A stretch of DNA of 64,000 nucleotides from Candidatus Poribacteria bacterium (GTDB taxonomy: Bacteria; Poribacteria; WGA-4E; WGA-3G), in contig CBDBFU010000032.1 in NCBI GenBank assembly GCA_965205025.1, positions 96,001 through 160,000 on the forward strand, given 5' to 3'. Positions within the stretch are counted from its first letter, which is position 1, and each line of letters opens with the position of its first letter. The translations under genes were made by a program, and so were the position numbers. Positions 45,731 to 54,813 of this stretch are shown piece after piece. The notes under the pieces are model-generated. The model had not been told where the DNA came from, ran no database searches, and saw only the letters and a program-made list of their open reading frames with translations.

Positions 45731-45890
45731 TTAAACACTTTAGCATAAAGTGATTAAAATTGTCAATAAGCAAATTAAATAAGAGGGTTTATAATTCCTG
45801 CAATAACTTGCGTTTGATAATAGGTATATGAACTTCATTTACAAGCATATTGCATTCATTACCCCAGTAGGTGCGGTTACCTAACCGCAC

Positions 45891-46799
45891 TATTAGCGTC
45901 AATTTTAGAAAAAGGATGTCTGATTTTTCAATAATAATTATTGTTAAGTGAAAACACCTCCTATATAATGTATAAAAATATTACCTTTTCACTTTATACA
46001 AGAGGTGTTTCCAATGAATACATTATCACAGGTTCCTGAAAGAATGCAACAGATTCTAACGACCATTGCCGATGAAGCAACCCTTGAAACAGGGTTTTGC
46101 AAAAGAAATCGAAAACTCACAGGGAGTCAATTTGCTCAGATACTTACTTTTAGTTGGTTAGAAAATCCTGATGCTACCTATACTCAACTTACACATACTG
46201 CTGCTTCGCTCGGTACTCCTATCTCACGGCAAGCCATTGAACAACGATTTACAGCTGAAGCTGCACAAACCCTCAAAGCAACCCTTGATGCGGCTGCGTC
46301 CGAAATGATTTCCGCGGATCCACAAGTTCTTCCACTCCTTGAACAGTTCAACGGTATCTATATACAAGACAGTTCTTGGATAATACTCCCTGATACGCTT
46401 CACGATATTTGGGAAGGCGCCGGTAAAGATGAAAGTAAGATTAGTAGCTCAGAGACTCTCCGAAGAAGACACCGAAAAACGACGACGAGATATCAACTAT
46501 CGTGCCAAACGAAAGCATACACAAGCATCACAGGCACGGCTCCAACGGCATTGGGTGATGTTGGTCGTAGGATGGCGATGTTTACGACATAGTCTATCGA
46601 AAACAGTAGATCTTATTACATCCTACACACGCACAATCACAACAAACTTTCGCAAGTCTAAGAAGCATCTTAGGCAGACATTTGATGAAATAAAACAAGT
46701 ATTCGAAACAGGATGCTATATTGAGAGACGAGCTAATAGAAAAACAACATTGGAATATCTTGAAAATGCTATAAAAAAAACACTAAATTGACGCCTATG
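45891..46799 (+). mobile_element. IS4-family (IS231-like) element, non-autonomous double-deletion derivative (909 bp)
   Basis: Ends match the copy at 46989-48443; two internal deletions totalling 546 bp remove the LADLGY and RWQIE regions. Confidence 0.9.
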
Positions 46800-46988
46800 A
46801 ATCAACGGTATGAATGCTATTTAGCATTCCCCGTGGTTAGGAAACCGCACCTACCAGCTCTGGGTCCAAATTACCTATTTTATTTTTTTAACTTCATTTA
46901 TCATTCCCCGGGTATGAATGACATATGAAGATTAATTTTTAAATTCGGTAATTTTGGAGAAAGATCCAGTGCGGTTAGGAAACCGCAC

Positions 46989-48443
46989 TATAGGCGTCAA
47001 TTTTAGAAAAAGGATGTCTGATTTTTCAATAATAATTATTGTTAAGTGAAAACACCTCCTATATAATGTATAAAAATATTACCTTTTACTTTATACAAGA
47101 GGTGTTTCCAATGAATACATTATCACAGGTTCCTGAAAAAATGCAACAGATTCTAACAACCATTGCTGATGAAGCAGCCCTTGAAACAGGATTTTGCAAA
47201 AGAAATCGAAAACTTGCGGGGAGTCATTTTGCTCAGACACTTATTTATAGTTGGTTAGAAAATCCTGATGCCACCTATACTCAACTTACACATACTGCTG
47301 CTTCTCTCGGTACTCCAATCTCACGACAAGCGATTGAACAACGATTTACTGCTGAAGCTGCACAAACCCTCAAAGCAATCCTTGACGCGGCTGCGTCCGA
47401 AGTGATTTCTGCGGATCCACAAGTTCTCCCACTCCTTGAACAGTTCAACGGTATCTATATACAAGATAGTTCTTGGATAACACTCCCTGATACGCTTCAC
47501 GATATTTGGGAAGGTGCCAGTAAAAAGGATTATCCGAACAAATCCGAACTGAAACTCCATCTACGCTTCGATGTTGCTACAGGGACATTCGAACACTTTC
47601 AACTCACCAACGGCATCACCGCTGATAGCACTGTAGAAAAACAGATTGACCGGCTCCCCCAAGGGAGTTTACGCCTTGCGGATCTCGGTTATTTTTCGCT
47701 ACAAACCCTTCAAGAACTTACGGACGAAGGGGTCTTTTGGATTTCACGGTATAAAGTTAGGTGTTCGGTTTTTGACAATACAGGAAAGCCTCTTTGTTTA
47801 CATAAATGGCTCAAGTTTCAGACCGAAAACATTATCGAAACAGATATTTTCATAGGTTCAAAAAAGCGGATGAAAGTAAGATTAGTAGCTCAGAGACTCT
47901 CCGAAGAAGAAACCGAAAAACGACGACGAGATATCAACTATCGTGCTAAACGAAAGCATACACAAGCATCACAGGCACGACTCCAACTCGCAGGTTGGAA
48001 TATCTACATTACAAATATTGGAACGGATCAACTCACCGCTGAACAGATATGTGTCATTGCGCGGATTCGATGGCAGATCGAGTTGATATTTAAGTGCTTT
48101 AAAAGCCTTGGAAAAGTAGACACATCACGAAGTAAAAAACCGTATCGTATTCTATGTGAAATATATGCTAAACTGATCGCTGCAATCATTCGGCATTGGG
48201 TGATGTTGGTCATAGGATGGCGATGTTTACGGCATAGTTTATCGAAAACAGTAGAGCTTATTACGTCCTACACACGCACAATCACAATAAGCTTTCGCAA
48301 GTCAAAGAGACATCTTAGAGAGACATTTGATGAGATAAAACAAGTATTCGAAAACGGGTGCTACATTGAAAGAAGAGCTAATAGAAAAACAACATTGGAA
48401 TATCTTGAAAATGCTACAAAAAACCGCTAAATTGACGCCTATG
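46989..48443 (+). mobile_element. IS4-family (IS231-like) insertion sequence, 1455 bp
   Basis: TIRs TATAGGCGTCAATTTTAG and CTAAATTGACGCCTATG; flanked by the 20-bp direct repeat GTGCGGTTAGGAAACCGCAC. Confidence 0.92.
47111..48430 (+). CDS. IS4-family DDE transposase
   Basis: GFCKRNRKL N-terminus; IQDSS (D1), LADLGYF (D2), RWQIELIFK (E); GAGGTG RBS. Confidence 0.93.
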   Translation: MNTLSQVPEKMQQILTTIADEAALETGFCKRNRKLAGSHFAQTLIYSWLENPDATYTQLTHTAASLGTPISRQAIEQRFTAEAAQTLKAILDAAASEVISADPQVLPLLEQFNGIYIQDSSWITLPDTLHDIWEGASKKDYPNKSELKLHLRFDVATGTFEHFQLTNGITADSTVEKQIDRLPQGSLRLADLGYFSLQTLQELTDEGVFWISRYKVRCSVFDNTGKPLCLHKWLKFQTENIIETDIFIGSKKRMKVRLVAQRLSEEETEKRRRDINYRAKRKHTQASQARLQLAGWNIYITNIGTDQLTAEQICVIARIRWQIELIFKCFKSLGKVDTSRSKKPYRILCEIYAKLIAAIIRHWVMLVIGWRCLRHSLSKTVELITSYTRTITISFRKSKRHLRETFDEIKQVFENGCYIERRANRKTTLEYLENATKNR

Positions 48444-48554
48444 GTGCGGTTAGGAAACCGCACCTACCGGGTTTGGGAAAATTAGAATTACCGAAATATT
48501 TAGTTAATCCTCATTAGTCATTCACCGGGGCTTAGTGTTTTGTGTTTATTACGT

Positions 48555-52929: not shown

Positions 52930-54813
52930 ATGGCAAAAATAAAAATTCTATCATCAGATGTTGCGAATAAAATCGCTGCAGGAGAAGTTGTCGAACGTCC
53001 TTCCTCTGTTGTAAAAGAACTTATTGAAAATGCAATTGACGCTGAGAGTACAAGTATTAGAGTAGAAATCCGAGCTGGTGGAAAAGCACTGATCCGTGTT
53101 TCAGATAATGGTATCGGTATGGAACGTGAGGATGCTTTACTGGCAATAGAACGACATGCAACAAGTAAAGTGAGTCAAATTGAGGATCTTGAGAATATCC
53201 ATACATTTGGATTTCGGGGTGAAGCATTGGCAAGTATTGCGTCTGTTTCTGAATTTGAACTTCTTACACGCACTCCTGATGCAATTCAAGGGACCCAGAT
53301 AAATGTTGATGGTGGTGTATTTCGATCGGTTGAAGAGAGTGGTTGTTCACCAGGAACACATATTTCGATTAGCAATCTTTTCCATAATGTCCCCGCACGT
53401 CTTAAGTTTCTTAAGACAGATACCACAGAAATTAACCATATAACTAACCATGTAACATGGGCAGCATTAGCACATCCGACGATTCATTTTTCTTTGACAC
53501 ATAATACAAAGACGATCTTAGATGTACGTGCTTGCGATTCCTATTTGGAAAGAACAAGACTATTGTATGGTAAAGATTTTGCTGATAATGTAATTGAATT
53601 TCAAGAGGAATTATCCGAATTCAATGTATCAGGACTCTTAGGAAAACCTGATTTTACTAAGACAAATCGTGAATATCAACTCTTTTTCATGAATCAACGT
53701 CCGATACGGAGTCAGATGCTTGGAGCAGCATTAAGGGAAGGGGTAAGCGCGACAGTACAAAAAGATCGACATGCAGTCGCATTTCTTTTTATGACTCTTG
53801 AACCTGATAAAGTTGATGTGAATGTGCATCCTGCTAAAATAGAAGTACGGTTCAGAAACGAACGTACAATATTTAGTGGAATTGTTAAGGTTTTACGGAG
53901 TGTGATAAATAGAGAGAAATTCATACCTAAAATAGAAACTCCTATAGAAACATCTGAAGAGAAAACACCTGAAGAATTACATCCAGATCCAATACCAGTT
54001 TCTACAACTACCCAACCACAATCCAAAACAACGACTTCAACAGATCATAGAATTGAACCTATCAACACATCTGAACCGATAGAGGAACGTATTGAAACAG
54101 TTGAACCTAAATCTGTAGAAACAGAAGCACAACCTGAAGAAGAAACTAAACCTACAAGTAAGGTTTCAGGAACTACCGTTGTTCACCCACAACAATCAAT
54201 ACCAGATGGTGTAAAACTAAAACTACTTGATTTTGAAAATGTCGAACTGAAGACAAATCTATTTAAGACCTATATTGTCGCTGAAGGTGAAGATAGAATC
54301 TTCTTTATTGATCAACACGTTGCTGCGGAACGTGTTCTATATGAACGATTTGTCAATCAGTTAAAAACTGATGGCATCCCAGTACAAGGTCTTCTACTAC
54401 CCATTACTTTAGAAGTGACTCCTCAACAGATTGGTATACTAAAGGTTCATGGAGAGTTATTCAAAAAAATTGGGTTTGATTTAGAAGACTTTGGTGGAAA
54501 TACCATCCTTATCCGAGCTATCCCATCAACACTTCCTACCCGATCAGCAGGACAAACTGTCACAGATCTTCTTGATAAACTCCCAGAACAACCACATTCT
54601 GAAGTGGAAATTCCCAAAGCAATTGATGATGCGCTGATTACGTTAGCCTGTCAATCAGCAGTAAAGGCTGGTGATACCTTGGACACTAAAGAAATGATTA
54701 ACCTCATTCGGGAGTTATCATACGCCAAACTCCCTTTCAATTGTCCTCATTCCAGACCAATCATCATAGAAATGGGTCGTGATGAATTGGAACGTCGTTT
54801 TCATCGATCCTAA
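52930..54813 (+). CDS. mutL: DNA mismatch repair endonuclease MutL
   Basis: NKIAAGEVVERP, GFRGEAL, DVNVHPAK, IDQHVAAER..YE, ACQSAVK and CPHSRP motifs. Confidence 0.97.
   Translation: MAKIKILSSDVANKIAAGEVVERPSSVVKELIENAIDAESTSIRVEIRAGGKALIRVSDNGIGMEREDALLAIERHATSKVSQIEDLENIHTFGFRGEALASIASVSEFELLTRTPDAIQGTQINVDGGVFRSVEESGCSPGTHISISNLFHNVPARLKFLKTDTTEINHITNHVTWAALAHPTIHFSLTHNTKTILDVRACDSYLERTRLLYGKDFADNVIEFQEELSEFNVSGLLGKPDFTKTNREYQLFFMNQRPIRSQMLGAALREGVSATVQKDRHAVAFLFMTLEPDKVDVNVHPAKIEVRFRNERTIFSGIVKVLRSVINREKFIPKIETPIETSEEKTPEELHPDPIPVSTTTQPQSKTTTSTDHRIEPINTSEPIEERIETVEPKSVETEAQPEEETKPTSKVSGTTVVHPQQSIPDGVKLKLLDFENVELKTNLFKTYIVAEGEDRIFFIDQHVAAERVLYERFVNQLKTDGIPVQGLLLPITLEVTPQQIGILKVHGELFKKIGFDLEDFGGNTILIRAIPSTLPTRSAGQTVTDLLDKLPEQPHSEVEIPKAIDDALITLACQSAVKAGDTLDTKEMINLIRELSYAKLPFNCPHSRPIIIEMGRDELERRFHRS

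Follow-up and report, generated by a model that had tools for sequence, protein, structure and literature searches.

What fixes the edges of a target duplication that coincides, base for base, with a complete hairpin is the question raised by an IS4-family insertion sequence (IS) in the genome of a Candidatus Poribacteria bacterium (NCBI GenBank assembly GCA_965205025.1; 5.66 Mb in 33 contigs). The element lies in a stretch of 64,000 nucleotides from contig CBDBFU010000032.1 (positions 96,001 to 160,000 of the forward strand), hereafter called the window, whose own numbering is used for the local features below, all of them on the + strand. An earlier, sequence-only reading of the window had proposed that the transposase targets repetitive extragenic palindromic (REP) hairpins by their structure, makes staggered cuts at the two feet of the hairpin or cruciform, and duplicates the REP with each insertion. 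The targeting and the duplication are borne out by the analysis described here, and the structural guidance is not; the element is probably a member of the IS4 family that resembles IS231, is active and has an intrinsic stagger of about two helical turns, with symmetric sequence half-sites at the two edges of its target.

The intact IS (46989-48443, 1455 bp, delimited by end inspection and blastn copies) is bordered by GTGCGGTTAGGAAACCGCAC at 46969-46988 and again at 48444-48463, in two perfect copies that each adjoin an IS end exactly. The duplicated 20-mer is the hairpin GTGCGGTT-AGGA-AACCGCAC, whose single strand has a folding energy of -8.7 kcal/mol (z -7.0), a value matched by 0 of 200 shuffled sequences. 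By flank inspection and folding, the left copy (46969-46988) is a tail-less hairpin, and the right copy (48444-48468 with its tail) alone runs on into CTACC (48464-48468), the reverse complement of GGTAG, exactly as had been noticed from the letters. Since the loop reads AGGA in both flanking copies, they repeat one another directly, which excludes an extension of the inverted ends. Paralogue comparison places the single hairpin that was hit within a host repeat of about 115 bp with the ends ATGAAGATTAA...TTAATCTTCAT, of which the left part is retained at 46925-46968 and the right part at 48469-48514. The empty site, rebuilt in silico, matches at least 60 paralogous places across the junction, and a single hairpin was present within the ~115-bp repeat in all six of the paralogous empty sites inspected; empty sites already containing two REPs, which the sequence-only reading had named as evidence that would speak against it, were not among these six. 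As judged from these flanks and paralogues, the 20-bp flanking repeat is a true target duplication. The ~115-bp host repeat sits, in the window (46910-46924 and 48515-48530) and in paralogues, in the tip of another hairpin (ggtatgaatgNcat before the repeat and tagtcattcaccgg after it), so that three levels of nesting are found at this spot.

The genome holds 11 full-length copies of the IS, ten at 99.93-100% identity and one at 96.2% (blastn). Perfect 20-bp flanking repeats occur in eight of them, of which seven are hairpins, with the loop variants AGGA and TCCC/GGGA and in both orientations relative to the IS, and one (C4:71935-73389) is an unrelated 20-mer that folds at only -0.5 kcal/mol (z -0.1). 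The 96% copy has a hairpin flanking repeat with two mismatches, and two copies carry different tailed hairpins on their two sides. Altogether, a hairpin adjoins 10 of the 11 full copies, always at its outer base, which is the behaviour of a type 1 REP-targeting IS in the sense of Tobes and Pareja 2006. Three copies in the ~115-bp repeat are identical to one another, and their flanks differ mutually by 1-2 bases in 40, which indicates separate insertions into different members of that repeat.

Elements that share the IS ends enlarge this sample. The 14-nt end motif occurs 269 times genome-wide at up to two mismatches and 140 times at up to one mismatch with a pyrimidine tip. Pairing IS-type ends within 3.5 kb that are flanked by repeats of 18-20 bp with at most one mismatch yielded 33 end pairs (two of which share a left end), comprising nine IS copies (the eight perfect ones and the window's), small elements, non-coding and about 170-590 bp long, and two larger units. 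The flanking repeats are of hairpin type in 21 pairs and non-hairpin in 12. The length of 18-20 bp in 33 of 33 pairs departs from the duplication of about one helical turn (7-13 bp) that is the norm in the IS4 family; the earlier reading had put IS4/IS231-group duplications at usually around 10-12 bp, and the duplication here is about twice the values of Table 1 of PMC2266710, which gives 7-13 bp in all IS4 subgroups and 10-12 bp for IS231.

The preference for the hairpin is pronounced. A pattern search for GTGCGGTT-N4-AACCGCAC that allowed up to one change in each arm found 187 copies, which at 20 bp each make up 0.066% of the genome, and an intact hairpin adjoins 44 of the 140 IS-type ends, which upholds the claim that REP palindromes are targeted. 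The stem also occurs with compensatory changes, as GTTCGG..CCGAAC (39 copies) and GTGCGA..TCGCAC (19 copies). A CTAC tail follows 157 of the 187 hairpins in a common orientation, and among the 30 tail-less ones 26 adjoin an IS4-type end on the tail side (54 of the 187 hairpins adjoin such an end overall), so that tail-less hairpins are almost all products of duplication; the view that each insertion duplicates the REP holds in this form, one tail-less hairpin being added each time. Flanks of at least 30 nt are common with other copies in 160 of the 187, which makes the hairpin a module of several longer repeat families, some of which include units bounded by IS4-type ends. One such family, of 172 bp, consists of two inverted GTAG-tagged hairpins between IS4-type ends, like a doublet of the REPIN type (paired REPs that form a hairpin), and of little else. 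Other IS-ended elements are nested in hairpins of this family with 20-bp repeats (e.g., C5:46366-46738 and C20:154298-154658), and the ~115-bp repeat that bears the hairpin hit by the window's IS is of a different kind. Members of 172 bp were recorded at C7:146231-146402, C10:48317-48488 and C20:99639-99810 and one of 169 bp at C12:73269-73437, and the stem variants GTTCGG..CCGAAC and GTGCGA..TCGCAC are those carried by these 169/172-bp small elements.

The non-hairpin insertions comprise a single intact copy of the IS together with 11 small elements that share its ends, and their repeats measure 18 bp (2), 19 bp (6) or 20 bp (4); the sequence-only reading had named insertions at non-REP sites with short duplications as a refutation, and such insertions do exist, but their duplications are not short. 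The non-hairpin repeats fold at a mean of -0.13 kcal/mol; the hairpin-type repeats average -7.62, and 3000 random 20-mers from the genome average -0.41. Across the 24 half-sites of these 12 targets, T occupies position -3 in 16 and G position -1 in 16, followed by G at +1 in 19, T at +2 in 18 and T or G at +3 in 20, which gives a symmetric edge motif T-n-G|G-T-K that the tail side of the hairpin, GTAG|GTG, fits too. Moreover, at C20:99639 a hairpin-type repeat of 19 bp still begins at GTAG|GTG, the opposite arm of that hairpin having been disrupted beforehand.

Palindromes longer than the repeat, as found in relatives, allow the position of the cuts to be compared with the foot of the stem, and the cuts fall 2-7 bp inside it. 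In a Poribacteria clade with 70% identity, which uses the same hairpin family as its target and in addition shows three non-hairpin 20-bp repeats (L006, L008 and L009), and in a clade with 58% identity, which uses a different target repeat, GGTAGAGCG..GCGAAACC, the length is conserved as well; in the latter, the palindrome runs past the repeat where complementary flanks exist, e.g., gtcg|GGT..ACC|cgac. Similarly, loci L005 (cggtag|..|ctaccg) and L038 (ccgtag|..|ctacga) have GTAG/CTAC on both sides of the repeat and are cut inside a longer palindrome, the stem extends 2 bp beyond the repeat at L080 and L084, and the repeat at L086 lies off-axis in a longer GTAG...CTAC palindrome.

Long duplications extend well beyond this genome. 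Paired ends were obtained at 30 of 43 related Poribacteria loci, automatic end-calling being without result at the other 13, and all repeats were of 19 bp (11) or 20 bp (19). In a second set of relatives, 11 of 24 Poribacteria rows were mis-set, three being shifted by two bases (still a 19-bp hairpin repeat) and eight unusable; such errors arise because the palindromic arms of the hairpin mimic inverted repeats. Among distant relatives, long repeats of 19-22 bp occur at L076, L079/80/84, L083, L086 and L088, of 20 bp at L144 (a Chlorohelix plasmid) and of 19 bp at L145 (a Herpetosiphon aurantiacus DSM 785 plasmid). Listed by host, they measure 21 bp in Blastocatellia, 19-20 bp in an uncultured proteobacterium, 21 bp in Iodobacter, 20-22 bp in Isosphaeraceae and 21 bp, at a non-hairpin site, in Anaerolineae; the long-repeat relatives, at 19-22 bp, therefore come from Poribacteria, Acidobacteriota, Planctomycetota, Chloroflexota and Proteobacteria. 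The target at L076 is the palindrome GGGCAGGG-ACAAG-CCCTGCCC. Short repeats of 10-12 bp were found at L087, L090, L097, L100 and L117, the hosts being Chloroflexus (11 bp), a Chloroflexota metagenome-assembled genome (MAG; 11 bp), Thermoguttaceae (12 bp), Loosdrechtia (10 bp) and a Chlamydiae MAG (10 bp), and an imperfect repeat of about 11 bp was seen at L123 and was not called by the script. Most Bacillus loci gave no automatic end call, and the published 10-12 bp was used for them.

A quick tree of 24 transposases (IQ-TREE, LG+G4, midpoint root, with support from the Shimodaira-Hasegawa-like approximate likelihood ratio test, SH-aLRT, only; one truncated row dropped) placed ten long-repeat rows, together with two of unknown repeat length, on one side of a branch with an SH-aLRT of 97. 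A single change explains the repeat-length trait on this tree, a result equalled by 0 of 500 shuffled labellings. The IS231-like relatives with repeats of 10-12 bp stand on the opposite side of this branch. The Bacillus IS231 rows form a separate clade, far across this branch and the midpoint root, and the present element does not group with them. The long stagger is thus, from the distribution of flanking repeats on the tree, a clade-wide property.

The mechanism that probably underlies these observations would begin with a transposase that joins its two IS ends to target phosphates 18-21 bp apart, i.e., about two helical turns, where the described relatives span about one. Each edge of the duplication would be chosen by sequence, through a half-site of approximately T-n-G|G-T-(G/T) that is symmetric on both sides and slightly free in its spacing, and the REP-like hairpin (G)GTAG|GTGCGGTT-N3-4-AACCGCAC would offer a near-perfect two-fold match of the right length. 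Because the hairpin would match both half-sites, the IS and its many short non-coding derivatives would land there, and gap repair would copy the whole 19-20-bp hairpin. The hairpin is also a building block of several small repeat families, and the same IS ends delimit some of these, so that insertions would nest in earlier elements and create new landing sites. On this account, the long stagger is an intrinsic property of the transposase, and the hairpin is the best-fitting symmetric sequence; the chemistry would be cut-and-paste like that of Tn5 and Tn10, acting on duplex and not on extruded target DNA, with a protein-DNA geometry of two turns.

Several observations weigh against this account or limit its reach. 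The duplication tracks the hairpin exactly in three sizes, namely 19 bp with a 3-nt loop, 20 bp with a 4-nt loop and 21 bp with a 5-nt loop (L076); such agreement is predicted by a structural model and by flexible half-site spacing alike, and would here reflect the flexible spacing between two half-sites. In the non-hairpin duplications, 29 of 76 inner pairs are complementary where chance would give about 20, a weak two-fold symmetry that was reached in 1.6% of 2000 random draws; it is read as the tail of the half-site preference. The half-site consensus itself is based on 12 sites. In the alignment, no clade-specific indel separates long- from short-repeat transposases, and only one column discriminates between them (W210 vs F); a change of Y to A in the YREK motif was considered as the determinant of the stagger and was ruled out, as it does not track repeat length. 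Several distant relatives contribute repeat lengths from a single locus each. Flanks that do not match, in which the left side belongs to one insertion type and the right side to another, are present in two of the 11 full copies, in a decayed copy in the window and, in other genomes, at L077/L078. They are attributed to recombination between copies that face opposite ways with respect to the hairpin tail, which would generate exactly two such hybrid classes, with tails on both sides (as here) or on neither side (L077).

An orthologous empty site, finally, was recovered neither for the window IS nor for the non-hairpin C4 copy in relatives and public-run contigs. For the window IS, none was present in 20 relatives, where the flanking genes lie on different contigs or in different places and the intergenic region is not conserved; for the C4 copy, among the matches listed, only the flanking gene is kept (query 1-673, up to 83% identity) and not the last 350 bp before the IS, and no precise join across the IS occurs in the contigs of four public runs. 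Two of these four runs contain the filled right junction of the C4 IS. In two public sponge/marine runs, contigs join position 673 to position 2561 of the stretch around it (L133, C4:70935-74389), with 39 other letters replacing 1887 bp; these contigs represent related strains without the whole repeat-filled spacer and the IS, and what they show is another intergenic region instead of an empty site.

The structural proposal itself, in which the transposase reads an extruded hairpin or cruciform, or a single-stranded hairpin at the replication fork, and cuts at both feet, with non-hairpin insertions as relaxed side reactions of a protein of unchanged geometry, would account for the exact coincidence of repeat and hairpin at 19, 20 and 21 bp, for the stability of the hairpin as single-stranded DNA (-8.7 kcal/mol), for the mostly palindromic targets of distant relatives, such as that of L076, and for the slight internal symmetry of non-hairpin targets. 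It is nevertheless unlikely, as 12 of the 33 end pairs duplicate 18-20 bp without hairpin potential, palindromes that exceed the repeat are cut 2-7 bp within the stem and in one case off-axis, the 19-bp repeat at C20:99639 starts at GTAG|GTG in a hairpin with a disrupted arm, and no end pair was seen to duplicate any of the other hairpin families noticed in this genome. Together with the symmetric edge motif, these data do not support a hairpin or cruciform structure as what sets the cuts. A different objection, that the flanking hairpins are no duplication at all and represent extended element ends, or that the IS lies between two neighbouring hairpins that were there before, with little or no duplication of its own, could draw on the frequent pairing of hairpins inside small elements bounded by terminal inverted repeats (TIRs) and on the two full copies with different hairpins on their two sides. 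This objection is already contradicted and deserves almost no credence, since the paralogous empty sites inspected contain one hairpin and not two, the shared loop orientation excludes an inverted-repeat extension, hairpin variants differ between IS copies and agree within a copy, repeats of 18-20 bp also flank insertions at unrelated sequences, and tail-less hairpins are nearly confined to these ends (26 of 30).

It is also conceivable that the preference is not encoded in the IS transposase alone, and that a hairpin-bound host or accessory factor, such as a Y1 REP-associated-type transposase or a nucleoid protein, recruits it. The hairpin does carry the GTAG tag that is typical of REPs, and the genome encodes three identical Y1 (IS200/RAYT-type, the latter denoting REP-associated tyrosine transposases) genes (C27:72631-72975, 86996-87340 and 53137-53481; loci L124-L126). 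The Y1 genes are, however, flanked by arrays of a different hairpin, with no hairpin of the GTGCGGTT type within 700 bp of any of the three; the term REP accordingly describes the form of the hairpin here and implies no link to a RAYT. As the same edge motif recurs at non-hairpin targets, and as relatives in five phyla hit different palindromes, each with edges of its own (GGG...CCC or GGT...ACC), recruitment of this kind is quite improbable. Close inspection of one Y1 gene showed tandem arrays of a hairpin with GTAG in the loop region (GAGTCCCGTAGGGACGGAATGTCTATAG), a motif that is also found inside several small IS4-ended elements.

A transposase that chooses its target by symmetric half-sites has a parallel in the IS231 subgroup (IS231A, IS231F and IS231Q; Bacillus cereus group), which among annotated plasmids supplies the closest named relative (about 29% identity, with 95% of the protein covered). 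IS231 reportedly prefers the symmetric target GGG(N5)CCC, and the MIC231 cassettes are non-autonomous derivatives that share its ends. Both are single open reading frame (ORF) elements with a DDE transposase of similar size, and GGG...CCC edges recur in distant long-repeat relatives of the present IS. The two differ in that the repeats of IS231 measure 10-12 bp versus 18-21 bp here, the Bacillus elements stand across the tree branch, the Y of YREK is A in this IS, and the hosts here are sponge symbionts and members of other phyla instead of Firmicutes.

As set out in PMC1525189, REP-targeting IS are known from five families, including the IS4-family ISRm22, and ISRm22, ISPsy8, ISPa11, ISPpu9/10, IS1397, ISKpn1 and IS621 resemble the present element in that all or nearly all copies reside in REP-type palindromes at one fixed position. 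Those elements insert inside the REP and break it, with repeats of 0-6 bp and, in ISRm22, at the axis of the palindrome, whereas the present IS leaves the hairpin whole and copies it entire, so that each insertion adds a hairpin; hybrid flanks of ISRm22 have also been explained by recombination between copies (PMC1525189). Unusually long direct repeats next to IS4-related transposases are shared with IS1634 and IS1549, whose long repeats are mentioned in PMC2266710, but those vary from 8 to 514 bp between copies, in contrast to the narrow 18-21 bp here. REP and REPIN-RAYT systems are similar in their high-copy, GTAG-tagged hairpin (187 copies), often in inverted doublets, and differ in that the Y1 genes of this genome are flanked by another hairpin family and in that 160 of the 187 hairpins lie within longer shared repeats. 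No description of an IS4-family element with a fixed repeat of about 20 bp was found in the full-text literature, a search that did not extend to ISfinder or the element lists of PMC2266710, where an undiscussed entry (e.g., Herpetosiphon aurantiacus DSM 785) is possible. PMC8024623 was considered as a prior description and set aside, because it reports 4-9 bp.

The length of the target duplication counts as a hallmark of DDE transposon families, being a readout of strand-transfer complex geometry. A coherent clade spanning several phyla has here doubled this length, from about one to about two helical turns, without a domain gain visible in the alignment, and close relatives with 10-12 vs 19-22 bp form a natural pair for asking what sets the stagger. 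For REP-like hairpins, a second route of multiplication is shown, in which the hairpin is copied whole by a DDE transposase and carried in small elements that use its ends, and which helps to explain the nested repeat clusters of Poribacteria genomes. A wider scenario is offered tentatively, as a possibility that the present data make less than even: the GTAG-tagged hairpins of sponge symbionts may be spread and maintained mainly by this DDE transposase and not by RAYT, short IS-ended elements carrying hairpin doublets to new places and each insertion adding one hairpin, so that the IS would make its own landing pads, a self-renewing safe haven, on top of a cross-phylum IS4 subgroup with a two-turn complex. 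In annotation, tools that expect repeats of 9-12 bp will mis-bound the elements of this clade.

The assignment of the element within the IS4 family draws on its ends and on its transposase. The left end is TATAGGCGTCAATTT from 46989, and the right end is AAATTGACGCCTATG up to 48443 (CATAGGCGTCAATTT as reverse complement); the TIRs of 15 bp, YATAGGCGTCAATTT, match at 14 of 15 positions, the left tip being T and the right tip C. Compared with the IS231 end signature CAT-------AA--TAA of PMC2266710 (Table 1), the right end CATAGGCGTCAATTTAG agrees in CAT, in AA at 11-12 and in TA at 15-16 and has G at 17, and the left end starts with TAT. The transposase gene (47111-48430, 439 aa), defined as an ORF, has its stop codon within the right inverted repeat. 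Its product scores 89.7 bits with the Pfam model DDE_Tnp_1 (cut-off 23) and 211.7 bits with the NCBIfam IS4-family model NF033592 (cut-off 115), and stays below the cut-off of 100 with the IS1634-family model NF033559 (45 bits), which places it outside IS1634. The predicted catalytic residues D119, D191 and E324 fall in columns that are invariant in 25 aligned relatives, and their spacings of 71 and 132 agree with the D(60~110)D(100~150)E pattern of the IS4 family sensu De Palmenaer et al. 2008. The Y(2)R(3)E(6)K motif is incomplete, reading A317-R320-E324-K331 with A at the Y position; all five Poribacteria rows show A or V there, several other relatives have A, and Y is retained in the IS231 rows as well as in three members of the long-repeat clade. 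A sequence search of solved structures with the transposase returned 0 matches at E up to 0.01. On these features, the element is classified as an IS4-family IS.

A decayed copy of the same IS lies next door (45891-46799), where blastn recognizes three pieces (IS positions 6-536, 881-999 and 1203-1455) at 91-97% identity to the intact copy, separated by two internal deletions (IS positions 537-880 and 1000-1202). Its left end is adjoined by an AGTAG tail and the hairpin GTGCGGTTACCTAACCGCAC (45866-45890, the hairpin being 45871-45890) in the opposite loop orientation; to its right (46800-46855) follow a small hairpin element of 33 bp (46800-46832) and then a truncated hairpin, GTGGTTAGGAAACCGCAC, with CTACC (46833-46855). 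The earlier description of a deleted IS between REPs is accurate on the left, where the copy starts directly after the hairpin, and only roughly so on the right, where the 33-bp element separates its end from the truncated hairpin. The left and right flanks form no direct repeat, and the flanks are therefore hybrid. The small element (..GGTATGAATGC-N5-GCATTC..CCGTTGATT) is present, besides 46800-46832 of the window, at no fewer than seven element ends genome-wide (e.g., C2:174614, C22:23850, C27:62167 and C29:17611), repeatedly exactly between an IS4-type end and a hairpin that lacks two bases of its outer arm. It looks as if it were an insertion at the junction of IS and repeat, and no end pair duplicating this 33-bp element was found.

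The two larger units with IS4-type ends contain reading frames of other kinds. The 1350-bp unit at C28:257372-258721 (L143), at a non-hairpin site with a 20-bp repeat (one mismatch), encodes two ORFs of an IS630-family transposase (HTH_Tnp_IS630, DDE_3) and is thus an IS630 element that lies within a small element with IS4-type ends. The 1029-bp unit at C12:48059-49087 (L142), with an 18-bp repeat, has a frame of 267 aa that runs from ATG to the end of the unit without a stop and shows no similarity to the IS transposase in tblastn. Another type of element with related ends (CATAGGTGTTAATTTACTCATTAGACTC..) occurs, e.g., at C12:4260, C25:59541, C33:69208, C28:23844 and C10:58406, and is regularly preceded by a conserved flank of about 20 nt that starts with GTG and ends with CAC (GTGTGTAAAGTTTTTGTCAC-like), which could be another favoured 20-bp target or else belong to a longer element end.

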